Part shown: positions 1 to 32,000 of the stretch, one piece after another
How the letters are laid out: the number at the start of each line of letters is the position of its first letter
How positions within the stretch are numbered: the stretch's first letter is position 1
Source: Candidatus Saccharimonadota bacterium
GTDB lineage: Archaea; Nanohalarchaeota; Nanosalinia; Nanosalinales; Nanosalinaceae
Length of the DNA stretch: 32,000 nt
Direction: 5' to 3'
Assembly (NCBI RefSeq): GCF_029232205.1
Contig: NZ_CP107255.1
Coordinates: forward strand, 1,014,960 to 1,046,959
Made by a program: the position numbers and the translations under genes
Notes under the pieces: model-generated
Seen by the model: the letters and a program-made list of their open reading frames with translations, nothing else
Told to the model about the DNA's origin: nothing
Databases searched by the model: none

Positions 1-129
1 TTTTACCGCGTCCTTCACTATTTCTCCGGCCTCTGATATGAAATCCATTATTCTGAACTCTGGTGGGGCCTGCATGTCGTTTTCTTCAAGAAATTCTGAT
101 ACTCTGTTTTGTTGTTGGCGGAGAGACAT
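1..129 (-). CDS. MazG-like nucleotide pyrophosphohydrolase; only the N-terminal 43 codons are present and the gene runs off the window start
   Basis: Hand translation of the minus strand from the ATG at 129 gives MSLRQQQNRVSEFLEENDMQAPPEFRIMDFISEAGEIVKDAVK, and the frame stays open to position 1. The N-terminal helix followed by an E-x-GE motif resembles MazG/YpjD-type enzymes. The gene ends 3 nt from the stop of the downstream ogg gene. Confidence 0.45.
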   Translation of the reverse strand, partial: MSLRQQQNRVSEFLEENDMQAPPEFRIMDFISEAGEIVKDAVK

Positions 130-132
130 CCT

Positions 133-1032
133 TTATTCGACCTCTATATGTCCTTTTCTTGCGGCGTGAAAGATATATTCCTGGGCATAACCAGAGTACT
201 CGCCGAAGTGTTCTCTCATGTTTTCAGATAGTTGATCGTATTTATCAGCGTAGAGATCCTCAAAATGACTTTTCAAGGCCTTATCTGCCCACGTATCGAT
301 TGGGTAGGCCTCGTAGAATCCTAGAGAGAAGAGAAGTACGCAGTCCGCTACTTTGTCTCCTACGCCGTACAGTTTCTTCATTTCTTCGCGGGCCTCGACG
401 TACTCCATTTCTCCGACTTCTTCAGCTTCAAAGCTTTCTTCCTCCAGAATTTTGAGAGTTTCTACTATGTATTTTGCTCTGTAACCTGTTCCCAGTTCTC
501 TGAGTTCTTCTTCAGAGGCCTGTGAAAGTTCTTCCCTAGTAGGGAATCTTAGTAGTTCTTTTCCATTGATTTCTCTTGTTTCGCCGTATTTTCTGGCGAT
601 TTCGTTGTGCATTTTCTTGATTCGTGGTATTCTCATCTGTGGCGAAAGCAGATAGGAGATAAGACATGGGAAGAATTCGTCCTGTACAATTCTGAGGCCC
701 CAGAGATATTCTTTTGCCTCTGAAAGTTTCTGATTTTCCGGAAATGTCTGGAAGATGTCTTCCAGATCGTGATGTATTCCGAGGGCCTCTTCTACTTCTT
801 CTCTTGGCAGTTCTGTTTCTACAATTATTTCGTTGTCTTTTTCCTCTACTATTATCGGTTTCTTGTTTCTGAATGTGTAGAACCGGGAATTCTTTTCGGA
901 TTCAGAAGATTCTTGGTCTTCGGATGCTTCTTCGTAGAGTTTGCCGTTTACTCGATGCCAGCAGAATGTCTGGCCACAGGTCATTGTCTGTTCCAGGTCG
1001 AAGTCTTCCGCCGGTATCGAGAATTTTTGCAT
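133..1032 (-). CDS. ogg: 8-oxoguanine DNA glycosylase / AP lyase (Ogg, HhH-GPD family)
   Basis: 299 aa ORF. The N-terminus has the ...GQTFCWH... motif. The helix-hairpin-helix/GPD region reads LYGVGDKVADCVLLFSLGFYEAYPIDTWADKAL, which is typical of the Ogg1/Ogg2 family. Confidence 0.85.
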   Translation of the reverse strand: MQKFSIPAEDFDLEQTMTCGQTFCWHRVNGKLYEEASEDQESSESEKNSRFYTFRNKKPIIVEEKDNEIIVETELPREEVEEALGIHHDLEDIFQTFPENQKLSEAKEYLWGLRIVQDEFFPCLISYLLSPQMRIPRIKKMHNEIARKYGETREINGKELLRFPTREELSQASEEELRELGTGYRAKYIVETLKILEEESFEAEEVGEMEYVEAREEMKKLYGVGDKVADCVLLFSLGFYEAYPIDTWADKALKSHFEDLYADKYDQLSENMREHFGEYSGYAQEYIFHAARKGHIEVE

Positions 1033-1059
1033 GGAATATCTAGTGGTGAGAAAGAGTTT

Positions 1060-1254
1060 TTAGTCCGAGTCCTTCTTCGAGTACTTGAAGAATCCTGTAC
1101 CTTTTTCCTCGTCGTAGTCGTCGCTCTTGTCTTTGGTCTTCTTTGCATCTCTTTTCAGGTAGCTGCGGCCGCATTGGTGGCATTTTACTCTTTTCTGGGC
1201 CTTGCTTCGCTGTTTGTAGCCGCAGTCCGGGCACTGGTAGAAGACCTTTGACAT
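1060..1254 (-). CDS. Small zinc-ribbon protein with a basic then acidic tail
   Basis: 64 aa ORF with CPDCG...14 residues...CHQCG, that is two CxxC knuckles. It is tightly packed between the ogg and DUF123 genes. I prefer it to the overlapping alternative frame 1040..1234, which has no motif. Confidence 0.6.
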   Translation of the reverse strand: MSKVFYQCPDCGYKQRSKAQKRVKCHQCGRSYLKRDAKKTKDKSDDYDEEKGTGFFKYSKKDSD

Positions 1255-1256
1255 GT

Positions 1257-1631
1257 TTATTTCTCCTTTGCTGAATGTGTTAAGCTCTTCGGTATTTTGA
1301 ACAGATGTGAGTTTTTACTGGAGTCGGAGGCCCCGAATTCCGGTACCGGTTCTGCTATTTTCTCCATGATGGAGGCCATGATTTGTTCGTATTCCGAGGT
1401 TTCCGGCAGTATGAAGTAGTCGTAGGTTGAGGCCTTTTCTGTGAGGTAGTCTATGTGCCAGTGTAGTTTTTTGTCGCTGGAGAAGTGTCTTTGCAGTCTT
1501 TTTTCGACTGAGTTCTGTGCTGATCCGATGTATGCATAGTGGCCTTTGGAGAATTTTATTTGGCCTAGAGCTCCTACTTCGATTTCTCTGTCTTTTTCTA
1601 ACTCTATGAAAAGCATGTAGACTCCTTTCAT
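1257..1631 (-). CDS. GIY-YIG superfamily nuclease-like protein (archaeal DUF123 type)
   Basis: The ORF track runs to a TTG at 1649. The ATG at 1631 gives MKGVYMLFIELEKDREIEVGALG...GHYAYIGSA...RLQRH...HWHIDYL, the characteristic DUF123/Uri-like layout. Confidence 0.75.
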   Translation of the reverse strand: MKGVYMLFIELEKDREIEVGALGQIKFSKGHYAYIGSAQNSVEKRLQRHFSSDKKLHWHIDYLTEKASTYDYFILPETSEYEQIMASIMEKIAEPVPEFGASDSSKNSHLFKIPKSLTHSAKEK

Positions 1632-1672
1632 CACTGCACGTTTTAACAAATTGGCTGCGAGTTTTTAGTATT

Positions 1673-1960
1673 ATGAGATCGGAGCTGCGTGATGGTCTTA
1701 TCTACGGTCTTTTTCTTGCAGGCCTGACTTTTCTGACTGTGAAGGTTCTCGGTTTCAATCCTGCTTCTCTTACTGTTCTGCTGTATCTTAACGTGTTGAT
1801 GGGGTTAGTGATCAATCTCAGGTCTGAGAATCTGGGTCTCGAATCTGTTTTCGGCCAGTTGATGGTTGCCGTTGAAGGAGAAGAGCAGAAGGTTAAGAGA
1901 GTTTTTACCGGCGAAGAGTATGTTTTGAACGGCACGATGGAGAAGATTGAGGAGAATTAG
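1673..1960 (+). CDS. Small hypothetical membrane protein with two predicted TM helices
   Basis: 95 aa ORF with two hydrophobic stretches (LIYGLFLAGLTFLTVKVLGF and LTVLLYLNVLMGLVINL). No recognisable family. A TATA-like TTTTAA lies about 28 nt upstream of the ATG. Confidence 0.4.
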   Translation: MRSELRDGLIYGLFLAGLTFLTVKVLGFNPASLTVLLYLNVLMGLVINLRSENLGLESVFGQLMVAVEGEEQKVKRVFTGEEYVLNGTMEKIEEN

Positions 1961-2742
1961 CTGTAGGTTATCTCCGCGTATTTCAGGCCTTCATCTGTGT
2001 AGACTGTTAGTTTTCCTGAGTCGCTGTACAGTGTCATGCCTGTTTCGTATACCGCGTCGACATTCATAGGGCCTTCTCCCGTGTAGAAGCTGTAGGTCTG
2101 ACCTGGCTCTATTTTCACTTCTTTTATGTTGTAGCTATCGCTGTAGCTTGGTGATGCACTGTGTAGTCGCCAGCCTGAAAGATCTACTGCTTTCTCGGCC
2201 TTGTTGGTTATGTTTACGTATTCCTGTTCGCCTTCGACTATATCGAATTCTAGTTCTGGTAGTTCTGATCTTATGGCCTTTGTCTCGCGTTTTTCTAGCT
2301 CTTTTACTTTGTTATGTATTTTTTCTTTGATGTCGGCCCTGATTTTTTCTACTTTTGTTCTGTTGAGGCCTTCAAATTTTTCGAATCTTCTTCCTTTTCT
2401 TACTCCTGTTGTTAGTGTTCCGTAGGGTGTTGTTATTCTTTCTTTTCTCATGGATGCGTTGGATAAAGTGATTTTGAGAGTGGCTCGCGGCGTTCTGTAC
2501 TTCGTTACCTGTTTCTCCGGGCTTTCTGTTTTCTGTATCGTGTAATCTGTTGTTTTCATCTCCGAGTTTCTTGTTGCGTTGGAGAATTCCAGGCCGAACG
2601 TGGATCCGAATTTTCCTTCTTCATTTATTTGGAAGAATTTATTTGATTGAGAGCTTATTTGGACTGTTTCTGCAGCTGCCGGAATAGATATTACAAGCGT
2701 GATAAGTAGTGCTGTGATTATAGAGTCTCTTTTGAGGCCCAC
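1957..2742 (-). CDS. Secreted protein with a C-terminal lamin-tail-domain (LTD)-like module
   Basis: 261 aa. It has an N-terminal signal or anchor sequence (IITALLITLVISIPAAA). The C-terminus reads EYVNITNKAEKAVDLSGWRLHS...IEPGQTYSFYTGEG...LYSDSGKLTVYTDEG, which matches the LTD pattern. Confidence 0.6.
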   Translation of the reverse strand: MGLKRDSIITALLITLVISIPAAAETVQISSQSNKFFQINEEGKFGSTFGLEFSNATRNSEMKTTDYTIQKTESPEKQVTKYRTPRATLKITLSNASMRKERITTPYGTLTTGVRKGRRFEKFEGLNRTKVEKIRADIKEKIHNKVKELEKRETKAIRSELPELEFDIVEGEQEYVNITNKAEKAVDLSGWRLHSASPSYSDSYNIKEVKIEPGQTYSFYTGEGPMNVDAVYETGMTLYSDSGKLTVYTDEGLKYAEITYS

Positions 2743-2782
2743 TTTACCTAAAAGTAAAAATAGAGGATTTTTTAAGTCTGGC

Positions 2783-3784
2783 CTAGAGTTCGCTGTAGTT
2801 GTTGTTGAATACTACCAGAGTTGATCTGAGAACCCCCAGGACTATTGGGCCCAGGAAGAGGCCTGCTGCTCCGAATAGGTATACTCCGCCAAGCACTCCG
2901 ATAATTATTACTGCAGGATGGAGTTCTGCGGATTTATCTACGACTATCGGCCGGAGGAAGTTGTCTGTGAGGCCTACTACTACCAGTCCATAGGCGAATA
3001 GTATCATTCCTTCGAATACGTGGTCGATCATTATGAGGTATACTGCTGCAGGCCCCCAGATGAGGAAGGATCCTACTATCGGTAGGAATGCCAGGATTGT
3101 CATGACGAATGTCCAGAAGTACGGGTTTGGTACTCCTGTGGCGTAGAGGCCTATTCCTGCGACGAGTCCCTGTGCGATGGCGACGAGTACGTGGCCTTTG
3201 ACTACGGCCCACGTGGTTTTGTTTGTTCTTTCCAGCAGGCTATCCTGGATGTCGTGTGGTAGCGGGAATACGTCTTTCATCCATTCTATGAGTTTGTCGC
3301 CGTCTTTGATGAAGTAGTAGAGAAGGAAGAGCATCAGTGAGACTCCTATAGCAAGATTTGCGATTACGTTGAATATTTGGGATACGTTTCCAAAGGATAT
3401 TGTTGAGAATTTTCTGATTATTTCTCTGACATTTTGTTCTACATTTAGATCTTCTCCTGTTATCTGTTCAAGCCTCGAGTCTATTCGGGAGAGATCAATT
3501 GTTTCAAGATCCCCTATTCTGGCTGATAGATCCTGTGCATCGTCAACTACCACGCTTGCTGCCAGAACCATAGGTACGATCGCGAGAAATATCGCCAGAA
3601 ATACCAGAAATCCTGCGCTAGCAACCTGGCCTGTCATTGGAGCTATTCTTTTGTGGAGAGGCCTTAGAACAAACGCAAGTATTGCAGCTCCGGCAATGTA
3701 CGGCAAAAATGGTTTCACCATTAGGCCTGCGATCGCGCCTACGACTGCTATTAGAAGAAGTAAGAAGCCTCTCTTTTCATTCAT
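2783..3784 (-). CDS. AI-2E family transporter (PerM/UPF0118)
   Basis: 333 aa polytopic membrane protein. The layout and the C-terminal FLRPIVVDKSAELHPAVIIIGVLGGVYLFGAAGLFLGPIVL region are typical of the AI-2E family. Confidence 0.8.
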   Translation of the reverse strand: MNEKRGFLLLLIAVVGAIAGLMVKPFLPYIAGAAILAFVLRPLHKRIAPMTGQVASAGFLVFLAIFLAIVPMVLAASVVVDDAQDLSARIGDLETIDLSRIDSRLEQITGEDLNVEQNVREIIRKFSTISFGNVSQIFNVIANLAIGVSLMLFLLYYFIKDGDKLIEWMKDVFPLPHDIQDSLLERTNKTTWAVVKGHVLVAIAQGLVAGIGLYATGVPNPYFWTFVMTILAFLPIVGSFLIWGPAAVYLIMIDHVFEGMILFAYGLVVVGLTDNFLRPIVVDKSAELHPAVIIIGVLGGVYLFGAAGLFLGPIVLGVLRSTLVVFNNNYSEL

Positions 3785-3807
3785 GGATATAACTGCGTTA
3801 TACAGTT

Positions 3808-4998
3808 TTACATAATTACTCCGGTTCCAGCAAACATAAGCAGGGCTGGAATTATCAGCACCGACATTACTACAGCATTCTGATCATGTGTTCTGGCGGC
3901 AAATCCTATTGCTGAGGCTGTTGCGAGAACCAGTAGACCAGGAAGGCCTGTAAACAGGCAGGTTATAGAGATGAGAAGTAGAAGTGTTGCGGCCGTTACC
4001 TTTCTGTAGTCTATTTTCTGGATTATGTCAACGTAGCTGTAGGATACTTTCAGACAGATGAAGTAGGATAAAATTGCCGAGATCAGGGCCACTGCAGTCA
4101 TTTTAAGCATCAGGCCTTCTGAAATTTCTGTCAGCTGGTTTATGGCAACTGATGCCCCACTCCTTGGAGAACCTATAATATAGAGTGCCAGCAGAGAAGT
4201 TACGATGTCGGAAGAGTTGACTCCACCAAGCGCGGTGATGAAGTCATCCTTTTTTCTTGAGATAGGTGTCAAGAACGTTGTGGAGATCGCTGGGCCTATC
4301 CCGGGTACTATCCCTGCAATCAGGCCTGCTAGCGCACCAATCACCCCCGAGAAGTAGGTTGTATCTGTTTCAAATTCTCTTTCTTGTTCAGGTAGTTCTG
4401 TGTCTTCTCTGATTGCTGTTGTCATGGCTGGTACTGCGAAGAGACCTGTGAATACCGGTATGAGTACAAAGTTCTGGTTGACAGGCAGGTTGAATGAGTA
4501 GATTCCGAGCAGGCCTGATGCCGCCGCCAGCTGAAGTGATTTTGCTATGTCTTCCGTGTTGATTACTGCAAATATCAGGAAGAAGAATAGTATGTAGAAC
4601 ATGTGCGGGCTTATAATCGAGTAGACTGTTTCAAGGCCTAGAAGGAGTACTGGTGAGAGGATCAGTATGAATATTATTGCTGTGAGGCCTCCTTTTGCTG
4701 TTTTCTGGAATGCTTTGAGGCCTTTTCCATTTTTTACTGCTTTTGCTCCCGGTATTGTGGAGAGTGCTGTAGTTGCGTTTGGGGCGTGAAGAAATATTGC
4801 CGGTAGGAAGTCGTGGAATGTGTGGGAGACCGAGATTGAGATGATAAATGCTAGATAGATTGTGAGGCCTATTGACGATTGCAGATAGTATGGCAGGCTT
4901 ATGAATACTACTGTGTTGGGGTGTATTCCTGGTGTAAGGCCTGTTATTGTTCCTGCTAGTGTTCCTAGTATAATTATTGGTATTATTTCTGGGCCGAT
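3808..4998 (-). CDS. DUF112 / TctA-like integral membrane protein; the start codon is unresolved
   Basis: The ORF track starts at the ATG at 4602. Hand translation shows the same frame stays open upstream to a stop at 5074-5076. That upstream stretch encodes a membrane N-terminus typical of the family (IGPEIIPIIILGTLAGTITGLTPGIHPNTVVFISLPYY...). The downstream motif GIVPGIGPAISTTFLTP is also TctA/DUF112-like. No ATG, GTG or TTG exists in frame upstream of 4602. Confidence 0.65.
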   Translation of the reverse strand: MGPEIIPIIILGTLAGTITGLTPGIHPNTVVFISLPYYLQSSIGLTIYLAFIISISVSHTFHDFLPAIFLHAPNATTALSTIPGAKAVKNGKGLKAFQKTAKGGLTAIIFILILSPVLLLGLETVYSIISPHMFYILFFFLIFAVINTEDIAKSLQLAAASGLLGIYSFNLPVNQNFVLIPVFTGLFAVPAMTTAIREDTELPEQEREFETDTTYFSGVIGALAGLIAGIVPGIGPAISTTFLTPISRKKDDFITALGGVNSSDIVTSLLALYIIGSPRSGASVAINQLTEISEGLMLKMTAVALISAILSYFICLKVSYSYVDIIQKIDYRKVTAATLLLLISITCLFTGLPGLLVLATASAIGFAARTHDQNAVVMSVLIIPALLMFAGTGVIM

Positions 4999-5023
4999 GT
5001 TTGTGTTTGATCGGGCAAGTGGA

Positions 5024-5029
5024 TTTAAA
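5024..5029. promoter_or_regulatory. Palindromic TATA-like box TTTAAA shared by the divergent nac and DUF112 genes
   Basis: It lies about 25 nt upstream of the nac ATG (5052) and about 28 nt from codon ATC 4998, where the conserved DUF112 N-terminus begins. This spacing fits leaderless archaeal transcripts. Confidence 0.4.
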
Positions 5030-5051
5030 GTGCAGGGTGTAATGTTTGGGT

Positions 5052-5360
5052 ATGTTTGGCGGACAGGATATGTCTAAGATGATGAAGCAGATGGGCATGG
5101 ATATGGAAGAGATCGATGCCGATCGCGTAGTAGTAGAAATCGGAGATAAGAAAATGGTTTTTGAGAACCCTCAGCTCTCCAAGATATCGGTTCAGGGCCA
5201 GGATATGTTCCAGCTTCAGGGAGATTACTCTGAAGAGGAAGATGTCAGCGGCGAGGACGTGCAGCTGGTTATGGAGAAGACCGGTGCTTCCGAGGAAGAA
5301 GCGAAGAAGGCCTTGGAAGATAATGACGATGTTGCAGGCGCAGTAATGGACCTGCAGTAA
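5052..5360 (+). CDS. nac: Nascent polypeptide-associated complex protein (archaeal NAC alpha, NAC plus UBA domains)
   Basis: MFGGQDMSKMMKQMGMDMEEIDADRVVVEI...ENPQLSKISVQGQDMFQL is the canonical archaeal NAC N-terminus and NAC domain. The C-terminal EDVQLVMEKTGASEEEAKKALEDNDDVAGAVMDL is UBA-like. The ORF track begins at a TTG at 5046, but the ATG at 5052 is more likely. Confidence 0.88.
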   Translation: MFGGQDMSKMMKQMGMDMEEIDADRVVVEIGDKKMVFENPQLSKISVQGQDMFQLQGDYSEEEDVSGEDVQLVMEKTGASEEEAKKALEDNDDVAGAVMDLQ

Positions 5361-5375
5361 TTTCTACTTCTCAAA

Positions 5376-5381
5376 TTTTTT
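5376..5381 (+). terminator. T6 run downstream of nac, a possible archaeal oligo-T terminator
   Basis: TTTTTT lies 16 nt after the nac stop, in the only sizeable convergent spacer of the window. Confidence 0.3.
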
Positions 5382-5389
5382 CTCTAATT

Positions 5390-7971: not shown

Positions 7972-7992
7972 GAAAAAGTGTCAGTTAGAAGG

Positions 7993-8000
7993 TTTTTAAA
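7993..8000. promoter_or_regulatory. TATA-like box TTTTTAAA for secF; an A-rich AATAAAAAA element near 8036-8044 may serve aglB
   Basis: It is centred about 25 nt upstream of the secF ATG (7971) within the near-palindrome GGTTTTTAAACC. The second AT-rich element lies about 33 nt upstream of the aglB ATG (8073). Confidence 0.35.
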
Positions 8001-8072
8001 CCATTTGGCACCTCTACGTATGGGTTCATGCAAGCAATAAAAAACATGTATGCCTAATTCAGGGACAGGGCC

Positions 8073-11848: not shown

Positions 11849-11849
11849 G

Positions 11850-12236: not shown

Positions 12237-12261
12237 AAGAAGAAAAAAGGAATAAAATTTC

Positions 12262-15340: not shown

Positions 15341-15360
15341 GTACAAAGTTTCCACGTTGA

Positions 15361-15368: not shown

Positions 15369-15391
15369 TGAATGAGGCCTAACTTTGAGGT

Positions 15392-17929: not shown

Positions 17930-18015
17930 AGAGAAAGAATTAATGTCAAAATTTAAGTTATTTTAGTAAAGTATCCCGAACAAACTTGATAGAAATAAAG
18001 AGAAGAAAAAAGGCC

Positions 18016-18933
18016 TCACATGTAGCCAAGATCTCGTAGCTTGTTCATGATCTCTTTTTCATCTTTGTTCTGGGCCCTACCTGCTCTTTCCTTTGTGTTC
18101 TCTACATCCTGCAGCCATGCAGGAATTTCGTCGGACTTGTCTGTTGAAATCTCTGATCCTAGGCTTCTGAATCCTGCCCAGTACTTTGGACTGATAGGTA
18201 CGTCGTCCTGTGAAAGGCCTTCCGGCAGATCAGCTTCTTCTTCAGGATACTCGGAGATCTCTACTCCTGTGATGTCTGGTACCATGTGGAACCATGATGC
18301 GTCCCAGATGTCTCTTTCTGTAAGCTGTAGGATCGGGTGTACTCTCATGTGTTCCGGGTTGTCTCTTGGAGAGTAGAAGTCTTCGTCGCCTCGGGATTCG
18401 TGTTCATCCCACCGGACTCCATTAATTACGGCCTCGATTCCTTCTTCCTCCAGTAGTTCGTTCATAGGAACAGTCTTGAGAAGGTGGTTTCCGGATTCCG
18501 TGTCCATAAGCCACTGAACCTCTTCAAGTTCTTCGTCGATTCTCTTGGCCTCTTCCTGGTTGCGGTCGTTGAGCTCTGCGACAGGCACATAGTCTCCTGG
18601 TTCGTCGGCCTGGTCGATTAGATCGTCGTTTCTTGCGACCATGACTTCGAATCCCCAGTTTTCAGCTAGTCTTTCAACGTACTCTTCAAGTTCGTCAAAG
18701 TGCTGGCCGTGGTCCACGAACATGAATCTTGGTTTCTCAATGTCGTGTTCCTCGCAGACTCTCTTGACAAGCCATGCGGTTACTGTGGAGTCCTTTCCTC
18801 CTGTGAAACCGATTACAGTATTGGAAGGATCGTACTCTTCCAGTGCTCGCTTGACGACTTCTTCTCCTGCTCTGATTTTAGCTTTTAGTGGTGCGTTCTC
18901 AATTTCGTCTCGTGTTACCGGTGCTTCTGGCAT
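18016..18933 (-). CDS. CysD-like PP-loop ATP pyrophosphatase (sulfate adenylyltransferase subunit 2 / PAPS-reductase family)
   Basis: 305 aa. It has the PP-loop FTGGKDSTV. It appears colinear with E. coli CysD as I recall it: FVDHGQHFDELEEY, NGVRWDEHESRGDEDFYSPRD, RVHPILQLTERDIW, FRSLGS, and a C-terminal ...KLRDLGYM against ...KKRQGYF. No cysN-like GTPase gene is present in the window. Confidence 0.75.
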   Translation of the reverse strand: MPEAPVTRDEIENAPLKAKIRAGEEVVKRALEEYDPSNTVIGFTGGKDSTVTAWLVKRVCEEHDIEKPRFMFVDHGQHFDELEEYVERLAENWGFEVMVARNDDLIDQADEPGDYVPVAELNDRNQEEAKRIDEELEEVQWLMDTESGNHLLKTVPMNELLEEEGIEAVINGVRWDEHESRGDEDFYSPRDNPEHMRVHPILQLTERDIWDASWFHMVPDITGVEISEYPEEEADLPEGLSQDDVPISPKYWAGFRSLGSEISTDKSDEIPAWLQDVENTKERAGRAQNKDEKEIMNKLRDLGYM

Positions 18934-18937
18934 TAGT

Positions 18938-18955: not shown

Positions 18956-18998
18956 TGGTAATACAGAAATGCTGTGCATTTCGCATTATGTGTTTCAC

Positions 18999-19190: not shown

Positions 19191-19271
19191 AATGCATAAC
19201 TTATGCAAGATGCTTCTTAAAGGCCTCGGCCCGGACGAAGTTTAAACAGTTTATAGGAATTAAGATTACGT

Positions 19272-21539: not shown

Positions 21540-21560
21540 AACACAGAATAATGGCTCTTG

Positions 21561-21570
21561 ATATTTTTTA
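21561..21570. promoter_or_regulatory. Single AT-rich TATA-like element ATATTTTTTA shared by a divergent gene pair
   Basis: It is centred about 29 nt from the ATG at 21595 on the plus strand and about 27 nt from the ATG at 21539 on the minus strand. Confidence 0.4.
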
Positions 21571-21594
21571 TGCATACGCCTCTAAACTATAGAT

Positions 21595-22893
21595 ATGGAT
21601 ATCAGCATTGTAGGAACAGGCTACGTTGGGCTGCCAGCAGGAGCAGGCCTCGCATCCAAAGGCAATCACAACGTAACATGTGTCGATATCGACGAAGAAA
21701 AGGTAGAGAAGATAAACAACGGAGAATGTCCTATCTACGAGGAAGATCTACCGGAGCTCCTTGAAAAAATGGTTGAGGACGGGAAACTTTCTGCAACCAC
21801 AAACACCAGCGATGCTGTACACAACTCTGAGATAACCTTTCTTGCAGTAGGCACCCCTATGCAGGAAGATGGAAGCATCAATCTTGACTACATCAAACAG
21901 GCCGCGGAAGACATAGGAGAGGGCCTGAGAGATAAAGAAGAATATCATGTAGTTGTGGTCAAGAGCACGGTAGTGCCTGGTACAACTGAGAACGAAGTAA
22001 TACCTAGAATTGAGGAAAAATCAGGTAAGAAAGCTGGCGAAGACTTCGGAGTATGTATGAACCCAGAGTTCCTGCGAGAAGGAACAGCACTGAACGACTT
22101 TCTGAATCCAGATAGAATTGTAATAGGAGAACTTGACGAAAAATCAGGAAGCAAGATAGAAGAAATGTATTCCGCGTTCGACGTACCGAAGATAAGAACT
22201 TCTCTACAGGCAGCAGAACTGATAAAATATGCATCGAACTCTTTGCTTGCCACCAAGATCTCATTCATCAACGAAATTGGAAACCTGTGTAAGGAACTGA
22301 ATATTGATGTATACGAAGTAGCAGACGGAGTAGGCCTCGACCACAGAATTAACAGAGACTTCCTAGACTCTGGAGCGGGCTTTGGAGGATCGTGTTTCCC
22401 TAAAGACGTCAGAGCGCTGGCCTCATTCATGGAAGAAAAAAATCTTGACCCAAAAATACTGAATGACACCATCCAGGTAAACGAAGAACAGAAAACCAAA
22501 CTCGTCGAACAACTACAAGACCACTATCCAGATCTCTCAGGTAAGACAATAGCAGTACTAGGTCTAGCATTCAAACCAGGAACCGACGACATAAGACAGT
22601 CTCCAGCAATCGATATAATCTCCGAACTCAAATATCTCGGAGCAGAAGTGAAGGCCTATGACCCAAAAGCAATAGAGAACATGAAACAAAAACATCCAGA
22701 AATCCAGTACACTTCAAACTATGAAGAGGCCTTAAAAGATGCTGACGCAGCCCTAATAGTAACAGACTGGAAAGAATTCAACCAGATCTCACGAGAAGAC
22801 CTACAGGAAATGAACAAGGCCTTGATACTGGAAGGAAGAAGAATGGAATACAAAATAGACAAAGAAAACAGGAAGGGAGTGACGTGGCCATGA
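21595..22893 (+). CDS. ugd: UDP-glucose 6-dehydrogenase (AglM-type)
   Basis: 432 aa. It has the ISIVGTGYVGL Rossmann motif, the catalytic GFGGSCFPKD and the C-terminal GLAFKPGTDDIRQSPA. Confidence 0.92.
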   Translation: MDISIVGTGYVGLPAGAGLASKGNHNVTCVDIDEEKVEKINNGECPIYEEDLPELLEKMVEDGKLSATTNTSDAVHNSEITFLAVGTPMQEDGSINLDYIKQAAEDIGEGLRDKEEYHVVVVKSTVVPGTTENEVIPRIEEKSGKKAGEDFGVCMNPEFLREGTALNDFLNPDRIVIGELDEKSGSKIEEMYSAFDVPKIRTSLQAAELIKYASNSLLATKISFINEIGNLCKELNIDVYEVADGVGLDHRINRDFLDSGAGFGGSCFPKDVRALASFMEEKNLDPKILNDTIQVNEEQKTKLVEQLQDHYPDLSGKTIAVLGLAFKPGTDDIRQSPAIDIISELKYLGAEVKAYDPKAIENMKQKHPEIQYTSNYEEALKDADAALIVTDWKEFNQISREDLQEMNKALILEGRRMEYKIDKENRKGVTWP

Positions 22894-23780
22894 AAACTAC
22901 AGTAAGTTATCCTGTAGGAGGTAGCGATTTCGCTGAAAAAGCACTTGACCTCACTAACTCAATAAGGAGAAATTCGGATGAAGTAAAGATAGTGACAGGG
23001 ATAAGAGAAGAGGAAAAAGATGAGATAGATGAAGAAACATTAAGAGAGATAAAAGAGAAGACAGAGATGCATACTATAAGAAGATCAACAGAAAAGTATC
23101 CTATTAGTGCGAAAATATCAACCATGAAAAAGGCCTCTGAGGAGGTAGATAGCGATATATTGATACACCTAGATTCTGATGTTTTTGTGGTAGACAATAT
23201 TGAAGACATATTCAAAATCCGAAATGATAAAGATTTTTTGGCTAAGCCCGTAGACTTTGGAAACCAGCATTATGCATGTAAGAAAAGCTTTAAACAATGG
23301 CAAGAGATTGCTAACGCTCTTAACAAAGATTTTAAAGGTTTAAAATATAGGAGCACTATAGATAACAACCGAATACCTCCCTACTTCAATGCAGGCGTCG
23401 TTGTATCATTCAACGATGAGTTCCCTAAAAGATGGGCTCAGGTAACAGACAAAGTATATGAAATAACTCAGAGTCGTTATTCCGACCAAATAGCATTAGG
23501 TCTACTGGAGCAAGAGTTTAAAAGAGGAAAAATAGAAGAGAAAAAAAGTTACAACCTGCCAGGACACTTTAGAGTTCCAGAAAATGTGGAAATACTAAGA
23601 TATGAAGATTACAATCATTTATTAAGATTAAAGGCTGTTTTGCGCTCAAACATAGAAGAAACCATAGATTTAGAGAATAAGTGGGAGAGTGAAAGAGACA
23701 GAGTGCGCGGACTGATTAAATCTTATAAGTTCTATCTATCTCTTCACTACCGATACCTGAGAAAAATACCAAAATTTTAG
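22890..23780 (+). CDS. GT-A fold nucleotide-diphospho-sugar transferase (GT8-like, D-x-D)
   Basis: LIHLDSDVFVV contains D-x-D, and PPYFNAGVVV is GT8-like. It is a paralog of the product of 30900..31664. The ATG at 22890 overlaps the ugd stop in an ATGA arrangement; the ORF track starts at a GTG at 22884. Confidence 0.55.
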   Translation: MKTTVSYPVGGSDFAEKALDLTNSIRRNSDEVKIVTGIREEEKDEIDEETLREIKEKTEMHTIRRSTEKYPISAKISTMKKASEEVDSDILIHLDSDVFVVDNIEDIFKIRNDKDFLAKPVDFGNQHYACKKSFKQWQEIANALNKDFKGLKYRSTIDNNRIPPYFNAGVVVSFNDEFPKRWAQVTDKVYEITQSRYSDQIALGLLEQEFKRGKIEEKKSYNLPGHFRVPENVEILRYEDYNHLLRLKAVLRSNIEETIDLENKWESERDRVRGLIKSYKFYLSLHYRYLRKIPKF

Positions 23781-23790
23781 AAACAGCGCC

Positions 23791-24621
23791 ATGAAAACAA
23801 AAATCTACAAGAGGTACAAGTATGATGTATTTCCTCGGATAGGACATCTTCGAGGTACAACGAGAGTTAAAGATATTTTAGAGAAAATAGCTCAGACAGG
23901 TATAGAGAAGATAGATGAGGAAAATATAGAGCACATTTATGAGAAGGACTGGGATAATCTGATTATTCTTGATGCCTCCCGACATGATACGTATCAAGAA
24001 ACACTGAATCCTGATTCTGATAGCAGGATAACTGCTCAAAGCCATTCAAGAGGGTTTATTAGGGAAAATTTTTCAGAAGGAGATTGGTCTGATACCGTTG
24101 TCATAACTGCAAATCCTTTCTACAATGAAGAAGAGTTTGAGAAACTGGTAGGAGCGAAACCAGAGGAGATTTTTGAAACAATTTTTCAGGTCTGGAATAC
24201 CGATTGGAATGAAAAGCATGGTACGGTAATGCCAGATAAAGTGGTTGAAAAAGTTAAAACCGCGGACAAACTATTCCCCGAAAAGAGAAAGATCATTCAT
24301 TTCATGCAACCTCATTACCCTTTCATTAACTCCAATATAGACGATACTAGCTTCGAAGACGCGGTTTTGAAAGAAGATTATGATGATATATGGGAGAAAA
24401 CGGAGAAAGGTGAGACAGAACCAGAAGAAGTAAGAAAGGCTTATCTGGACAACCATAATACTGTTGTGCAACACGTTGAGAAAATTCAAGATCTTTTAGA
24501 CGGGAAAACAGTAGTAACCGCAGATCATGGAAACCTGCTAGGAGAGAATGGTTTTTGGGGGCACCCCGGCAATTCTAATCTAAAACCTCTGAGGAAGGTT
24601 CCATGGGATGTGTTACAATGA
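23791..24621 (+). CDS. Small alkaline-phosphatase-superfamily protein (sulfatase/PglZ/NPP-like core); paralog of 27890..28774
   Basis: WDNLIILDASRHD, IHFMQPHYPFI and VVTADHGNLLGENGFWGHPG match the metal-ligand motifs of the AP superfamily. There is no signal peptide or TM segment. Confidence 0.5.
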   Translation: MKTKIYKRYKYDVFPRIGHLRGTTRVKDILEKIAQTGIEKIDEENIEHIYEKDWDNLIILDASRHDTYQETLNPDSDSRITAQSHSRGFIRENFSEGDWSDTVVITANPFYNEEEFEKLVGAKPEEIFETIFQVWNTDWNEKHGTVMPDKVVEKVKTADKLFPEKRKIIHFMQPHYPFINSNIDDTSFEDAVLKEDYDDIWEKTEKGETEPEEVRKAYLDNHNTVVQHVEKIQDLLDGKTVVTADHGNLLGENGFWGHPGNSNLKPLRKVPWDVLQ

Positions 24622-25658
24622 AAGTTTTGATGACTCCTTTTGTTGAGAATCCTTATCAGTCTATACTCAAGGAGAAGTTGGAGGATAGAAATATAGAAGT
24701 TGCTTCTGAAAAGTTTATTCCCGGATATAAACTGTTTTTAGAGGTTCTAAGCGAATGTCCTGACGTTATTCATTTGAACTGGGTTGATAGATTCTATATT
24801 ACTACAGACGACGTTTTATGGAAAAATTTGGCCGCAGGAGTCTTTTTTAGTTTTAATTTGATCCTAGTCAGTTTTTTCACCAGGATTGTGTGGACTGCCC
24901 ATAATAAGCATAATCATGAAGAAAAGTCTCCTAGATTGGATTGGATAATGAGAAAGTTTGTTTTCTGGATTTCTGATAGTGTCCAAGTTTGGGAGAAGAA
25001 TAGTAAGAGGGAGTTGTGCAAGTATTTGAATGTGAGTGATGAGAAAATAATTCAAATTCCGCACGGAAATTACCTTCCTGTTCACCCCGAGGAAAATCTT
25101 CCAAGCCAAGAGAATGCTAGAAAAGAACTTAATCTAGAAATGAAATCTAAAATTATTTTATTTTTTGGCAATATCAGGCCTTACAAGCAGGTTCCTCTAC
25201 TTGCTGAAAAGTTTGAAGAACTGAAGGATGATAATTCAAAACTCTTAATTGTTGGTCGTGCCAGACAGCAAGAAACTAAAAACAAACTTTCTACTATTGC
25301 TGAAAAAAGCGAAGATATTGAATTCATAGAAGGATTTATTGATGAAAATGATGTTCCTCTATATTTCAGAGCATCAGACATAGTAGCCCTGCCTTTCCGC
25401 GACATCTTTAATTCAGGCAGCATTATTATGGCTATGAGTATGGGAAGAGCAGTTTTGACCCCTAAAATAAAAATAATTAATTCTGTGGTTCCTAACAGCA
25501 ATATTCTTTACGAGAATATTAGTGAGGGAATGAAGAGGCTATTTAGCGAAGATAGGAAGAATATGAGAAAAATTGGAGATCAGAACCTAGAACATGCAAA
25601 ATTAGAAAATAATTGGAACGAAATCACTGATAAAACAGTAAAAATGTACAGAGCCTAG
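24618..25658 (+). CDS. GT-B glycosyltransferase (group 1 / GT4 family)
   Basis: The C-terminal domain (FFGNIRPYKQV...LLIVGRA...ASDIVALPFRDIFNSGSIIMAMSMGRAVLTP) is typical of GT4. The ATG at 24618 overlaps the upstream stop in an ATGA arrangement. Confidence 0.8.
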   Translation: MKVLMTPFVENPYQSILKEKLEDRNIEVASEKFIPGYKLFLEVLSECPDVIHLNWVDRFYITTDDVLWKNLAAGVFFSFNLILVSFFTRIVWTAHNKHNHEEKSPRLDWIMRKFVFWISDSVQVWEKNSKRELCKYLNVSDEKIIQIPHGNYLPVHPEENLPSQENARKELNLEMKSKIILFFGNIRPYKQVPLLAEKFEELKDDNSKLLIVGRARQQETKNKLSTIAEKSEDIEFIEGFIDENDVPLYFRASDIVALPFRDIFNSGSIIMAMSMGRAVLTPKIKIINSVVPNSNILYENISEGMKRLFSEDRKNMRKIGDQNLEHAKLENNWNEITDKTVKMYRA

Positions 25659-28774: not shown

Positions 28775-28797
28775 TTATGTCTGTATTTATTTAGAGG

Positions 28798-30084: not shown

Positions 30085-30907
30085 TTATTTTCTCCTCGTA
30101 GTCTCTCACTAACTGTTCAAAGCTTTTATCCTGAACTACTTCCACATTCTCATAGTTCTCTTCCAGCCATTCTGCAAAGTTTTTCTGGTGGCCTCCTGCA
30201 TGGCTTGAAGGCCTTACTATGACTTTTTCTGCAAGGTTTGCTGCTTCATAACTTGTCATTCCTCCTCTAGTTACCACTGTCTCAGTTCTCCCCATCAAGT
30301 CCAGGAACTCGCTGTGTGAAATGTCTTTCCAGTATTTTTCCTGTAGCTCCGGATCGTTGCTGGAAGGTATTATCAGTAATTCGTTGTCCTTTTCCCCGGA
30401 TTCATGTTCTGAAAAGTCTCTGAACTGGATGATCTGTTTGTTCTCAACCCTCTCTGTATCATACTTATCAAGTAATTCGTCCTGGGACACCCATACACGC
30501 GTATTAGATAATTTGGAAAGCATCTTTGGTGTAAGAGATGGCTGTTTCGTCCTGTTTTCTGCCTCTACAGCTATCACGTCTATGCCTTTGAGGCCTGCGA
30601 TAAGGCCTATAGGAAAAGAAGTGTTTGCTCCGTAAGCGACTACTTTTTCCGGCTTTTCTTCTCTCAGTATTCTCCAAGATCTGTAGAAGTTTTTTAGTGT
30701 TCTTAGAGGTCTGTAGAGTTTTGCTCCTGTAGGCCTGAAACTTGGTACTCGATAGATCTTGTCTGCGAAGCTGTAATCGTATTCGTCCTGGTGATCTGTG
30801 ACTATTATGTATTCTGGATCCTCTATCTCCTCTTCGATTCTGGCCTTGATTGCTGGTGTAGCGGTTGCATGGCCTGAATGTCTTGAACCGAGCATTATCT
30901 TAGTCAT
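30077..30907 (-). CDS. Fused Alg14-like/Alg13-like GT-B glycosyltransferase (GT28/MurG-related; candidate Dol-PP-GlcNAc beta-1,4-GlcNAc transferase)
   Basis: The N-terminal half (MLGSRHSGHAT..., KPEKVVAYGANTSFPIGLIAGLKGIDVIAVEAENRTKQPSLTPKML) is colinear with the Alg14 pattern (GSGGHT...kPd.vi.nGpg...p......g.k.iyiEs.aRv..lSltGkl). The C-terminal half (TVVTRGGMTSYEAANLAEKVIVRPS...GGHQKNFAEWLEE) resembles Alg13/MurG C-terminal domains. This assignment rests on pattern recall. Confidence 0.5.
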   Translation of the reverse strand: MTKIMLGSRHSGHATATPAIKARIEEEIEDPEYIIVTDHQDEYDYSFADKIYRVPSFRPTGAKLYRPLRTLKNFYRSWRILREEKPEKVVAYGANTSFPIGLIAGLKGIDVIAVEAENRTKQPSLTPKMLSKLSNTRVWVSQDELLDKYDTERVENKQIIQFRDFSEHESGEKDNELLIIPSSNDPELQEKYWKDISHSEFLDLMGRTETVVTRGGMTSYEAANLAEKVIVRPSSHAGGHQKNFAEWLEENYENVEVVQDKSFEQLVRDYEEKINE

Positions 30908-31664
30908 AGAATTTCAGCTTGTTGATGTAGTTTTTGATGACATTTACCATGGATGAGCCTGCTGCCTGTTCGATATGATAGACATAGGCATCAGCTGTTT
31001 TTTCCTCCAGCCATTCCAGAGTATGTTCTTTGGAAGTCATTTTTTCGACGTTTCCTGATGCTGTGGCCAGGGCAAGTGCATACTGTTCCCTATGATTCAC
31101 TTTTCCTCTCTGGATATCCATCTCCTGGAAGTATTTCAGCCATTTATCCTCGAGGCCTCTGTGAAAACCGTTTTTGAATATCAGGAAACCGGCATTCGGC
31201 ATCCAGTCAGTATAAGGCTCTTCATGCTTTTCGAAAAGAGGTTTCCATTCCTCTTCCTCCGGAGGTTCCTCAGGTCGGGCCTTGAACTCGAAGTCTCCTT
31301 CAAGAACATCCCATATATTATTGCCAACTACAGTATCACAGTCGAGAAATACTACGTTTTCTTCTTCTAGTGAGCAGAGGTTGATTTTCTCTCCGTAGTG
31401 TCTTTCTGGAAGTGATCGTGAAACGTTGAAGGCCTCTGTCTGGTTTTCTTTCTTGATTATTTCTGCGCCCGTCTCCTCGAGAATTTCTTCATCTTCTTTG
31501 TCGTACGGAGGTGTGTAGAATATCTTGATCTGTTCTGGTTCGACATGGTTTTTCAGAGTCGCTATCGATCTCAGGCATTGCTGGACCATTTTGTTTCTGC
31601 TGCTGAGCGTGTATACAAAAGCTGTTTTTTCTCTGTCAACCATGCAGTAGTATTGCAACTGCAT
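30900..31664 (-). CDS. GT-A fold nucleotide-diphospho-sugar transferase (GT8-like, D-x-D); paralog of 22890..23780
   Basis: VVFLDCDTVV contains D-x-D. FKARPEE, MPNAGFLIF and REQYALALA are colinear with FLAKPVD, YFNAGVVV and SDQIALGLL of the paralog. An alternative start is the ATG at 31643. Confidence 0.5.
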   Translation of the reverse strand: MQLQYYCMVDREKTAFVYTLSSRNKMVQQCLRSIATLKNHVEPEQIKIFYTPPYDKEDEEILEETGAEIIKKENQTEAFNVSRSLPERHYGEKINLCSLEEENVVFLDCDTVVGNNIWDVLEGDFEFKARPEEPPEEEEWKPLFEKHEEPYTDWMPNAGFLIFKNGFHRGLEDKWLKYFQEMDIQRGKVNHREQYALALATASGNVEKMTSKEHTLEWLEEKTADAYVYHIEQAAGSSMVNVIKNYINKLKFYD

Positions 31665-31700
31665 TTATTTAGGCCTTTACAGAGGTAGATTGCCAAAATA

Positions 31701-31850
31701 TCATACTAGTGAGAGCAGGAAATTGAATATTGAGGAGAACATTGACTTGGCTACGCTGCCGATTGCGACTATTGTTCCTGCGAAGAATCGGGCCAGTGTT
31801 TTCTCGATGTTTCCAGGCCCGTGGTCATGACTGCCTCCGTGGTGACTCAT
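31701..31850 (-). CDS. Possible 49-aa His-rich small membrane protein
   Basis: Hand translation gives MSHHGGSHDHGPGNIEKTLARFFAGTIVAIGSVAKSMFSSIFNFLLSLV. It is below the ORF-track size cut-off. It has a His/Gly-rich head and one hydrophobic helix. No homology support. Confidence 0.25.
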   Translation of the reverse strand: MSHHGGSHDHGPGNIEKTLARFFAGTIVAIGSVAKSMFSSIFNFLLSLV

Positions 31851-31983
31851 CTATACTGAAGTAAGTATTATGAATATTTATGAAATATTCGTAGGCCTGG
31901 ATTTTTTGCCACGTAGAAGGTGTAAAAATTGCTTTCTCTTATTTAAAGACTGGTTTGTTCATGTAATCTCCACATGAAATCAG

Positions 31984-32000
31984 GGGGTGCGGAAGGATTT
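31984..32000 (-). tRNA. Probable 3' end of a tRNA gene (T-loop, T-stem and acceptor 3' strand); the rest lies beyond the window
   Basis: The reverse complement of the last 17 nt reads AAAT-CCTTC-CGCACCC-C. This fits the end of a TTCAAAT T-loop, a 5-nt T-stem beginning CC, a 7-nt acceptor strand and a discriminator base. No CCA is encoded. The isotype cannot be determined. Confidence 0.3.

Follow-up and report, generated by a model that had tools for sequence, protein, structure and literature searches.

The window, the whole 32,000-base stretch of DNA analysed here, covers the N-glycosylation/SecDF region of Candidatus Nanohalovita haloferacivicina (DPANN, Nanohaloarchaeota), a salt-loving obligate symbiont (ectosymbiont) with a 1 Mb genome. 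It has a G+C content of 43.9% and contains, by exact count over its whole length, 93 copies of AGGCCT, or about one copy per 344 bp (2.9 per kb), which is the top-ranking hexamer of the window by frequency. A copy is present at each coordinate quoted in the preliminary description (10856, 11699, 22652, 21645, 8993, 15375, 18011, 31671, and 31893), and an independent assembly gives the same sequence. The copies and the stretches discussed below are as follows:

AGGCCT, first bases of the copies within 1..32000: 276, 306, 516, 1430, 1720, 1985, 2366, 2859, 2970, 3147, 3659, 3723, 3944, 4112, 4322, 4511, 4634, 4685, 4718, 4865, 4937, 5308, 5432, 5961, 6183, 6315, 6810, 7548, 7832, 8504, 8669, 8744, 8993, 9539, 10337, 10856, 10927, 11176, 11699, 11812, 12299, 12701, 13453, 13642, 13776, 14447, 14643, 14668, 15204, 15375, 15553, 16035, 16229, 16548, 16865, 16893, 17212, 18011, 18215, 19221, 19351, 20057, 20176, 20594, 21129, 21645, 22332, 22652, 22727, 22817, 23131, 25176, 25681, 25747, 25971, 26197, 26281, 27017, 27060, 28340, 28418, 28922, 28979, 29527, 29624, 30209, 30591, 30603, 30731, 31153, 31430, 31671, 31893
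1720..1725: intergenic AGGCCT
4631..5098, minus strand: N-terminal part of a gene for a TctA-family transporter, with the highest AGGCCT density of any gene (10.7 per kb, 5 copies over 468 bp)
5308..5313: intergenic AGGCCT
15375..15380: intergenic AGGCCT, lying in the divergent spacer bounded by gene ends or starts at 15355 and 15392
18011..18016: AGGCCT at a gene end, overlapping the final stop-codon base of ORF 18016-18933 (minus strand)
19221..19226: intergenic AGGCCT
22884..25658, plus strand: low-G+C island (36.5% G+C) with GT8, an unknown gene, and GT1 (glycosyltransferase-type; Pfam)
31671..31676: intergenic AGGCCT
31893..31898: intergenic AGGCCT

Here the TctA gene is broken up into two ORFs; relatives have one 394-residue product.

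A hand count had set about 90 copies against about 6 expected, and the exact figures of 93 against 5.7–7.8 (z ~30) bear this out. Base composition predicts 5.7 copies, and dinucleotide-preserving shuffles (n = 100) yield 7.8 ± 2.9, the largest value being 17 and none of the 100 reaching 93. Markov models of order 2 and order 3 predict 20.1 and 44.5 copies, respectively, the expectations at order 3 and order 4 being too high, since the excess extends to the sub-words AGGCC and GGCCT. Both an A and a T flank 93 of the 223 GGCC tetramers in the window (42%), so that the earlier figure of more than half was overstated. The island at 22884..25658 carries 2 copies against 0.46 expected, compared with 91 against 7.2 in the remainder of the window, and its GGCC tetramers are not enriched (4 against 3.3 expected). 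This island is probably recently acquired DNA that has not yet been reshaped by the AGGCCT process.

Coding DNA holds 86 of the copies, spread over 32 ORFs on both strands and all three phases (17 as AGG CCT, 22 as xAG GCC Txx, and 47 as xxA GGC CTx), and 7 copies lie between genes, in agreement with the Arg-Pro, x-Ala-x, and Gly-Leu phases assigned earlier. Density in the window is 2.90 per kb in coding and 2.95 per kb in non-coding DNA, and non-coding DNA pooled from five genomes contains 33 copies against 3.0 expected. Synonymous shuffles that keep the proteins and the codon usage of each gene retain 16.1 ± 3.5 copies (maximum 27) and codon permutations 9.1 ± 3.0, against 86 observed in coding DNA; the preliminary description had proposed codon-preserving shuffles as a means of refuting the excess, which survives them. 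Its argument for a cause at the DNA level rather than a peptide motif likewise stands, with the motif in three frames, equal density in coding and non-coding DNA, and codon-preserving shuffles reaching about one fifth of the copies. This is also how HIPs (cyanobacterial HIP1 and its kind) behave, which occupy all three frames and non-coding DNA beyond what codon usage provides. Among the synonymously accessible peptide contexts, 86 of 132 (65%) are spelled with AGGCCT in the window and 52–70% in three other genomes. Gly-Leu dipeptides are so spelled in 45–58% of cases in enriched genomes versus 0–12% in neutral or avoiding relatives, and Arg-Pro dipeptides in 68–100% versus 0–36%. As the Gly codon before CTN-Leu, GGC accounts for 70%, versus 21% in neutral and 1% in avoiding relatives, and GGT, GGA, and GGG are all drained, GGA and GGG at least as much as GGT.

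That these copies arise passively from the usage of amino acids, codons, or dinucleotides (Gly-Leu, Ala, Arg-Pro), or are remnants of longer repeats or mobile elements, has a negligible probability. Gly-Leu dipeptides are common, and the codons GGC, CTN, and CCT are unremarkable; however, the protein- and codon-preserving shuffles (16 versus 86) and the equal enrichment in non-coding DNA refute an origin in codon or dinucleotide usage, and the orthologous proteins of neutral relatives hold the same dipeptides without AGGCCT. The flanks of the motif carry no information, so that it is not a longer repeat, and the independent assembly agrees on the sequence. Dispersed repeats of the REP/MITE type were rejected as well, with no shared flanks and 86 of 93 copies inside genes. 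A genome-shaping pressure toward AGGCCT therefore almost certainly acts at the level of the DNA, and the analysis shows that it raises the odds of AGGCCT at any admissible position ~12–40-fold, independent of frame and coding status.

No conservation is seen around AGGCCT, the flank information being ≤0.3 bit, and flank preferences are weak and lineage-specific. One-base variants differ by position: measured against control genomes, outer variants are raised 1.6–3.3-fold, and inner variants stand at 0.63–0.99 (AGGTCT/AGACCT 0.95, AGGCTT/AAGCCT 0.99, and transversion variants 0.63–0.74). Neighbours such as AGGCCA and TGGCCT, for which depletion had been predicted, are thus enriched 1.6–3.3-fold instead. 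This outer-position bias is clear in the window and in the genome M3_22 and weak in two others (L005 and L009), and it follows the HIP pattern, in which deviations fall at the first and last positions and the inner core is held harder. The two half-sites contribute roughly additively, core and outer positions are hierarchical, and the GGCC core weighs more than the outer A/T.

All AGGCCT data were obtained from a single syntenic stretch of the chromosome, ~20–32 kb per genome, so that a "genome-wide" excess is an extrapolation. At least four further nanohaloarchaeal lineages (L001, which is M3_22, CP046106.1; L005; L009; and L204) have an 11–15-fold excess, and five genomes pooled contain 309 copies against 27.0 expected. 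Close relatives including Nanohalococcus occultus are neutral, the SVXNc genome is not enriched, and GGCC is nearly absent in L003 (9 versus 43 expected) and L011 (7 versus 62). Enriched, neutral, and avoiding lineages are interleaved in two quick trees, and switches of this kind between enrichment and avoidance are a usual mark of genes for restriction-modification and methyltransferases. AGGCCT is a StuI/Eco147I-type recognition site, and its GGCC core is a HaeIII-type site. Active restriction systems normally go with avoidance of their recognition sites. AGGCCT is instead enriched 12-fold, and the strong GGCC avoidance expected of HaeIII-like restriction appears in the relatives L003 and L011. 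In Alcanivorax borkumensis, an active restriction-modification system methylates AGGCCT on both strands (PMC12128166).

In conserved compatible contexts, the window and M3_22 share AGGCCT with an odds ratio of 7.8 (P = 0.006), and the correlation of AGGCCT state is 0.45 (CI 0.19–0.69). Modelled correlations are 0.39–0.61 for fixation bias, 0.05–0.15 for neutrality, ≤0.02 for gain only, and 0.71–0.88 for protection from loss alone. The turnover against M3_22 fits fixation bias and rejects the neutral and gain-only models, and loss-protection alone (Elhai's ratchet) predicts conservation above that seen. Codons are kept inside AGGCCT in 31 of 45 cases (69%) versus 128 of 238 (54%) for the same codons outside, a modest gap, and positions look nearly independent between the window and L005 or L009. 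AGGCCT sites appear to outlast the neutral expectation yet turn over. The commonest differences from M3_22 at AGGCCT sites are AGGTCT/AGACCT, which are also the commonest state of unoccupied accessible contexts (8 of 23 Gly-Leu and 3 of 8 Arg-Pro).

AGGCCT could alternatively be an uptake or recombination tag, where an import or recombination machinery preferring AGGCCT-bearing DNA and homologous recombination among conspecifics create a molecular drive, as in the accumulation of USS/DUS in Pasteurellaceae/Neisseriaceae. We regard this as unlikely. Its density of ~3 per kb is of the same order as that of USS/DUS (~1–3 per kb), and like them it lies within genes in all frames, shows a core/outer gradation in which one-off variants are enriched, is scarce in imported DNA, and could accumulate by drive without selection on single sites; the lineage-specific weak flank preferences resemble dialects, the turnover behaves as fixation bias, and abstracts of recent preprints tie HIP1 to transformation and horizontal gene transfer. 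However, known uptake sequences have an asymmetric, non-palindromic core of 9–12 bases with conserved flanks and are tied to a known competence machinery with a dedicated uptake receptor, whereas AGGCCT is a plain 6-base palindrome of little specificity. For Candidatus Nanohalovita haloferacivicina there are no reports of competence or uptake machinery, a symbiont that scavenges nucleotides should import host DNA rather than its own, and the flip to strong GGCC avoidance in close relatives is the signature of a restriction system. Binding sites of an abundant chromosome-organising or segregation protein, under selection for density and spacing and without methylation, also seem improbable. HIP1 provides a precedent (Xu et al. 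2018, PMC5861425), graded half-site contributions suit a dimeric binder, the sites appear to outlast the neutral expectation, and their spacing is slightly more even than random on accessible positions in four genomes (P = 0.25, 0.19, 0.006, and 0.14), but this spacing evidence is weak and 32 kb is far too short for kilobase-scale periodicity. Such a role would also call for stable inheritance, yet close relatives lack the trait or show its reverse, and there is no known candidate protein.

Very-short-patch-type repair alone, where an m5C methyltransferase and a Vsr-like endonuclease convert T:G in AGGTCT/AGACCT into C:G, is disfavoured and very improbable. Dcm/Vsr repair is the explanation offered for CCWGG in E. 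coli, and there too repair tied to a methylated palindrome raises its frequency; that effect is small and specific to the T variant, whereas the AGGCCT excess is an order of magnitude larger and draws on all variants. The predominance of AGGTCT/AGACCT at unoccupied sites and among M3_22 differences favours such repair, as does the annotation of a Vsr-like endonuclease and Dcm-like methyltransferases in SVXNc, though that genome is unenriched. The deamination products should be depleted, but AGGTCT/AGACCT and AGGCTT/AAGCCT are not; the drained variants are the transversions, and GGA and GGG are lost at least as much as GGT. A single transition cannot yield a 12–16-fold excess or the outer A/T preference.

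The pressure would instead be exerted by an AGGCCT-reading protein of two-fold symmetry, for which the GGCC core would be essential and the outer A/T partial and additive. A fixation bias, through selection on motif density or through motif-favouring repair or gene conversion, may both slow the loss and speed the gain of sites. The most likely reader would be an AGGCCT- or GGCC-specific DNA methyltransferase, its methylated sites being favoured through coupled repair or strand discrimination or used in chromosome maintenance. This enzyme, the most speculative step, is proposed because HIP1 and the alternate HIPs have cognate orphan methyltransferases; each alternate HIP such as GGCGCC comes with its own (PMC4390886), whereas for AGGCCT we can only infer one. 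The full chain, from the DNA-level pressure through to the methyltransferase, is put forward tentatively, with a chance a little below even. No methyltransferase, Vsr, or endonuclease genes were found in the loci examined (~20–32 kb per genome), where methyltransferase motifs were sought. The published annotation of this strain lists only a type III restriction-modification system with predicted adenine methylation (PMC10266531), and a REBASE survey credits both of its complete nanohaloarchaeal genome entries with a single type II methyltransferase gene each, that in the Nanohalobia row predicted as m5C and the other as m4C, with no endonuclease listed (PMC10609329). The undepleted AGGTCT/AGACCT (0.95) counts against an m5C/Vsr link.

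Cyanobacterial HIP1 (GCGATCGC) had been named as the closest precedent, and the comparison holds, with outer-biased variants as in HIP1 (PMC4390886) and a plain hexamer without flank conservation. Both are short, G+C-rich palindromes and top words that occur in all frames and in non-coding DNA, with an inner core held harder and a lineage-specific distribution. HIPs rank as the most over-represented words of their length, with an observed-to-expected ratio (O/E) of the order of 15 upward and copy numbers per Mb in the hundreds to thousands, a profile that AGGCCT shares. Among cyanobacteria, the alternate HIPs include GGCGCC (Calothrix PCC 7103), GCSGC, and RCCGGY (Elhai 2015, PMC4390886; Xu et al. 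2018, PMC5861425); they reach 0.5–2.5 per kb, GGCGCC with an O/E of ~15 (PMC4390886), beside 2–3.5 per kb and an O/E of ~12–16 for AGGCCT. Unlike HIP1, AGGCCT is a hexamer of different sequence and is carried by an archaeal DPANN ectosymbiont instead of a cyanobacterium; its sites are conserved only modestly above the same codons elsewhere, and sister lineages avoid its core tetramer outright. HIP1 tends to vanish in cyanobacterial obligate symbionts, whereas AGGCCT is near saturation in a 1 Mb obligate symbiont. We found no published description of the AGGCCT excess. In Candidatus Nanohalovita haloferacivicina, AGGCCT forms a hyper-abundant and lineage-specific palindrome of the HIP kind, the equivalent in an archaeon of the unexplained cyanobacterial HIP1 repeats.

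The palindromic hexamer AGGCCT occurs 93 times in the 32,000 bases of the window, which has a G+C content of 43.9%, against 5.7 copies expected from base composition. In 100 dinucleotide-preserving shuffles it reached 7.8 ± 2.9 copies (maximum 17), so that the observed count lies at a z-score of about 30. It ranks first among all 4,096 hexamers, and every other palindromic hexamer is at most 2.7-fold over expectation. Markov models predict 20.1 copies at order 2, 44.5 at order 3, and 79.6 at order 4; the high-order figures are circular because the signal already resides in the sub-words AGGCC (116 vs 20 expected) and GGCCT (153 vs 25). Every position and codon phase given in the preliminary description proved right, whereas its estimate that more than half of the GGCC tetramers carry the A...T flanks was too high, the counted share being 42% of 223. 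An independent public assembly of 6.7 kb is 99.98% identical to positions 1–5380 of the window and has an equal motif density beyond, which excludes an assembly artefact as the source of the pattern.

The SecF protein encoded in the window matches the SecF of Candidatus Nanohalovita haloferacivicina at 100% identity; this DPANN archaeon, an ectosymbiont of Haloferax, is in culture and has a genome of about 1.05 Mb (PMC10266531, PMC10443357). The surrounding DNA is a protein N-glycosylation neighbourhood containing an OGG glycosylase, SecDF, AglB, a GT4 enzyme, sugar-nucleotide enzymes, sulfatases, and glycosyltransferases. The features referred to here are as follows.

133–1032, minus strand: OGG/HhH-GPD glycosylase gene
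1257–1649, minus strand: DUF123 (GIY-YIG superfamily) gene, adjoining the OGG glycosylase gene
3808–5098, minus strand: TctA-family transporter, split in two ORFs (4631–5098 and 3808–4602)
7048–7971, minus strand: SecF gene
22884–25658: three glycosyltransferase-type genes of low G+C (36.5%), with 2 AGGCCT copies

The TctA transporter is a single product of about 394 residues in relatives. Its region holds one gap between the window and the independent assembly, in which the gene is likewise called as two pieces, placed differently; the split may mark a pseudogene or stem from a frameshift or sequencing error. Of the two pieces, the upstream one (4631–5098) has the highest AGGCCT density within the window. 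The DUF123-OGG pair is followed by MazG and TrmB-like genes in an order that is kept in several nanohaloarchaea regardless of motif status, and the arrangement may constitute a small repair module. DUF123/GIY-YIG was discarded as a motif-linked nuclease, since the gene occurs as well in relatives that are not enriched or that avoid GGCC (loci L003 and L083) and shows no correlation with the trait.

The excess of AGGCCT is not a by-product of coding. Eighty-six copies lie within 32 ORFs on both strands and seven lie between genes, at densities of 2.90 (coding) and 2.95 (non-coding) copies per kb, and all three codon phases are used (AGG|CCT, 17; xAG|GCC|Txx, 22; xxA|GGC|CTx, 47). Synonymous-codon shuffles within each gene, which preserve all proteins and the per-gene codon usage, yielded 16.1 ± 3.5 copies (maximum 27) and codon permutation 9.1 ± 3.0, compared with the 86 observed in coding DNA. 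Neither these nor the dinucleotide-preserving shuffles reproduced the roughly 90 copies, which bears out the earlier proposal of a frame-independent cause at the DNA level. AGG accounts for just 16% of arginine codons, yet AGG-CCT spells 17 of the 25 Arg-Pro pairs; similarly, GGC accounts for 29% of glycine codons, yet GGC-CTN spells 55 of the 82 Gly-Leu pairs, 47 of them with a preceding A. Accessible contexts, in which AGGCCT could be encoded with the amino acids left as they are, number 132 in the window (Arg-Pro, [KEQ]-Ala-[FLSYCW], and Gly-Leu where the codon before it permits), and the motif fills 86 of them (65%). The odds of AGGCCT are raised about 12–40-fold, alike in accessible coding contexts and in non-coding DNA, as a uniform DNA-level pressure would give. 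An amino-acid-level effect was rejected as not robust, the excess of Arg-Pro (1.6–1.9-fold over expectation) being confined to two genomes and absent from others.

Positions flanking the motif carry almost no information, and the unit is therefore a bare hexamer rather than a longer repeat. Given a GGCC core, the 5' A and the 3' T are nearly independent of each other, with 93 copies observed in the window and 79.6 expected under independence (45 vs 48.8, 61 vs 57.3, and 42 vs 34.2 in relatives). One-base variants are enriched at the outer positions and not at the inner ones. Together, this anatomy suggests a symmetric reader that requires the GGCC core and gains additively from its outer contacts. 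A longer motif or "dialect" was rejected, as palindromic 8-mers are as frequent as independent halves predict and preferences at the −1 base are weak. Those preferences have a lineage-specific component, with A before the half-site in 39–54% of cases in the window and a Nanohalobium sp. (L005) and G in 41–44% in NHA29 (L009) and CP180230.1 (L204), that could be a coding effect or a slight difference in recognition. Spacing of the copies is near random, although in four genomes it is a little more regular than when copies are placed at random among the accessible positions (P = 0.25, 0.19, 0.006, and 0.14).

In the glycosyltransferase-type island at 22884–25658, whose genes have a G+C content of 35–39% compared with 42–49% in their neighbours, GGCC is not in excess, while the remainder of the window holds 91 AGGCCT copies against 7.2 expected. 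The island probably represents a variable portion of the glycosylation cluster that was imported recently, and DNA of recently imported appearance has not been filled. The opening stretch of L005 (1–2230), an AGGCCT-rich locus, contains a single copy of the motif and carries small ORFs that include a possible fragment of a DEDD-type exonuclease or polymerase. It may be an integrated element, a second case of motif-poor DNA within a motif-rich genome.

Syntenic loci across the Nanohaloarchaeota were collected by scanning species-representative genomes around SecF and by contig look-ups; L204 was reached through a FolD homologue search and covers the same syntenic region.

Loci of Nanohaloarchaeota enriched in AGGCCT, with copies per kb
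Window: 2.9, top hexamer
M3_22 (L001; CP046106.1): 2.15, top hexamer
Nanohalobium sp. (L005): 3.55, top hexamer
NHA29 (L009): 3.5, top hexamer
CP180230.1 (L204): 3.3, top hexamer
L010: 0.88, mildly enriched

Pooled, the five loci in which AGGCCT is the top hexamer hold 309 copies against 27.0 expected, compared with 40 against 31.8 in seven neutral relatives, including Nanohalococcus occultus. GGCC is avoided in MAG_AT22 (L003; JACOQA010000002.1), with 9 copies against 43 expected, and in NHA25 (L011; JALDAJ010000001.1), with 7 against 62 and no AGGCCT at all. At conserved Gly-Leu positions, GGC makes up 70% of the glycine codons before CTN-Leu in enriched lineages, 21% in neutral ones, and 1% in avoiding ones. 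The near-complete avoidance in MAG_AT22 and NHA25 is the pattern classically left by active restriction of the HaeIII type; it falls in the same phylum as lineages that over-use the GGCC core. A quick, poorly resolved SecD+SecF tree places the enriched lineages together with one neutral and one avoiding lineage, an equally quick and poorly resolved AglB+GT4 tree scatters them, and in both they are interleaved with neutral and avoiding ones. Such flipping among relatives is the kind of pattern that mobile restriction-modification and methyltransferase genes give, and a conserved core cellular function would not show it.

Several observations on related and unrelated sequences accompany these counts. 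AGGCCT is the top palindromic hexamer, at 3–4-fold (18 vs 4.7 and 15 vs 4.7), in two Aenigmatarchaeota MAGs (L061 and L067), which may be a weaker form of the same phenomenon in another DPANN phylum. CTTAAG is almost missing from the window and all nanohaloarchaeal loci (0–3 copies vs 3–12 expected), and TTAA and CTAG are reduced to about 0.4–0.8 in most of them, with CTAG at 0.1 in L007; this depletion is phylum-wide and unrelated to AGGCCT status. A MAG labelled Colwellia polaris (L008; JBLGBK010000001.1) is fully syntenic with the nanohaloarchaeal SecDF-AglB-OGG region and encodes proteins 39–70% identical to those of the window, and the bin is therefore probably contaminated or mislabelled. 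Viral contigs picked out by three clustered AGGCCT copies were mostly tandem repeats and chance matches, and none was recognised as a nanohaloarchaeal virus. The best case with dispersed copies (L170), at a 5-fold excess, is a bacterial-type plasmid or phage fragment encoding Rep3, ParA, an integrase, and a DnaB-primase. Two related low-G+C viral contigs (L085 and L163; IMG/VR 3300029432_000018 and 3300045988_144701) carry dispersed AGGCCT at 1.6–3.6 per kb (13 copies in 3.6 kb where 1.2 are expected), and none of their ORFs matched a Pfam family.

Turnover of individual sites was followed between the window and M3_22, whose SecF proteins are 82% identical and whose four-fold sites are 48% identical. 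Of the aligned AGGCCT sites, 20 are common, 28 are found only in the window, and 12 only in M3_22. At 49 conserved compatible contexts the two genomes agree in motif state more often than by chance (odds ratio 7.8, P = 0.006), with a state correlation of 0.45 (CI 0.19–0.69). A rough two-state model calibrated on four-fold sites, resting on small numbers and approximations, predicts correlations of 0.05–0.15 under neutrality, at most 0.02 under enhanced gain only, 0.39–0.61 under a fixation bias of the strength required for the observed occupancy, and 0.71–0.88 under loss protection only. Within the limits of that model, continual replenishment alone is rejected and a pure mutational ratchet predicts more conservation than is observed; a selection-like or conversion-like bias fits best. 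Compared with the more distant L005 and L009, AGGCCT positions look nearly independent.

A uniform, strong, and lineage-specific pressure at the DNA level thus favours the bare palindromic hexamer, with the GGCC core dominant. Its source would be a dimeric sequence-reading protein, and it would act as a fixation bias. The most likely candidate for this reader is a DNA methyltransferase specific for AGGCCT or GGCC, coupled to repair or maintenance. Three observations favour it: a cognate methyltransferase accompanies every alternate HIP of cyanobacteria (PMC4390886), methylation of AGGCCT is known (PMC12128166), and the on/off/reversed distribution is typical of restriction-modification genes. 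Counting against a methyltransferase, the published strain annotation, which comes without a methylome, lists a type III system only (PMC10266531). REBASE records one type II methyltransferase of unspecified specificity in each of two complete nanohaloarchaeal genome entries (PMC10609329), and no motif of a C5 or N4/N6 methyltransferase was matched by regular expressions in any of the six frames of the window and 81 loci. We tentatively give this full reading, coupled process included, a little under an even chance.

In favour of Vsr-type T:G repair acting alone, the inner-C transition product, AGGTCT/AGACCT, is the commonest alternative at unoccupied sites. That product, however, is not depleted relative to neutral genomes (0.95), whereas transversion variants are (0.63–0.74), and GGA and GGG are drained no less than GGT; this repair alone is therefore disfavoured, and we regard it as very improbable. 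The sites might instead be an uptake or recombination tag accumulated by molecular drive, or selected binding sites of a chromosome-organising protein, each of which appears improbable, the one as much as the other, though less so than such repair. A possible but doubtful proposal is that several deep Nanohaloarchaeota lineages possess an undescribed genome-marking system distinct from conventional restriction-modification or Vsr machinery. The hexamer would then be a tag of about 3,000 copies per 1 Mb genome, if the local density holds genome-wide, kept by a strong fixation bias (scaled strength about 2.5–4) with two thirds of synonymous opportunities filled. It could serve as a self-DNA tag by which an obligate ectosymbiont that exchanges material with its haloarchaeal host would separate its own chromosome from host or viral DNA, or it could steer repair or recombination to that chromosome.

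HIP1, the cyanobacterial iterated palindrome, has been known for about thirty years and, to our knowledge, neither its origin nor its function is settled. The rank, excess, and three-phase use of AGGCCT assign it to the highly iterated palindromes, in agreement with the HIP1 likeness first suggested for it. It differs from HIP1 in domain of life, length, and sequence. A further difference is that its host is an obligate symbiont of reduced genome size, a way of life under which HIP1 tends to be lost among cyanobacteria (PMC4390886). Full-text literature searches turned up no account of AGGCCT or GGCC being over-represented in nanohaloarchaea or in other archaea.

In practical terms, AGGCCT skews codon-pair usage, with Gly-Leu and Arg-Pro dipeptides mostly taking one spelling. 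In hypersaline metagenomes it distorts both k-mer-based binning and attempts to detect horizontal transfer, and in enriched nanohaloarchaeal genomes it offers a simple marker of foreign DNA. A second, independent HIP-like system in another domain, with 1 Mb genomes and co-culturable strains, would bring comparative genetics to the HIP1 question. Close relatives that are enriched, neutral, or strongly avoiding for one core allow a co-varying gene to be asked for, and with cultured strains they open the old question of what drives such palindromes to direct testing. If the genome-marking reading is true, archaea would have in AGGCCT their first element of the HIP or DUS type, with lineages that are naturally "on", "off", or "reversed" and with cultured strains for tracing the mechanism.
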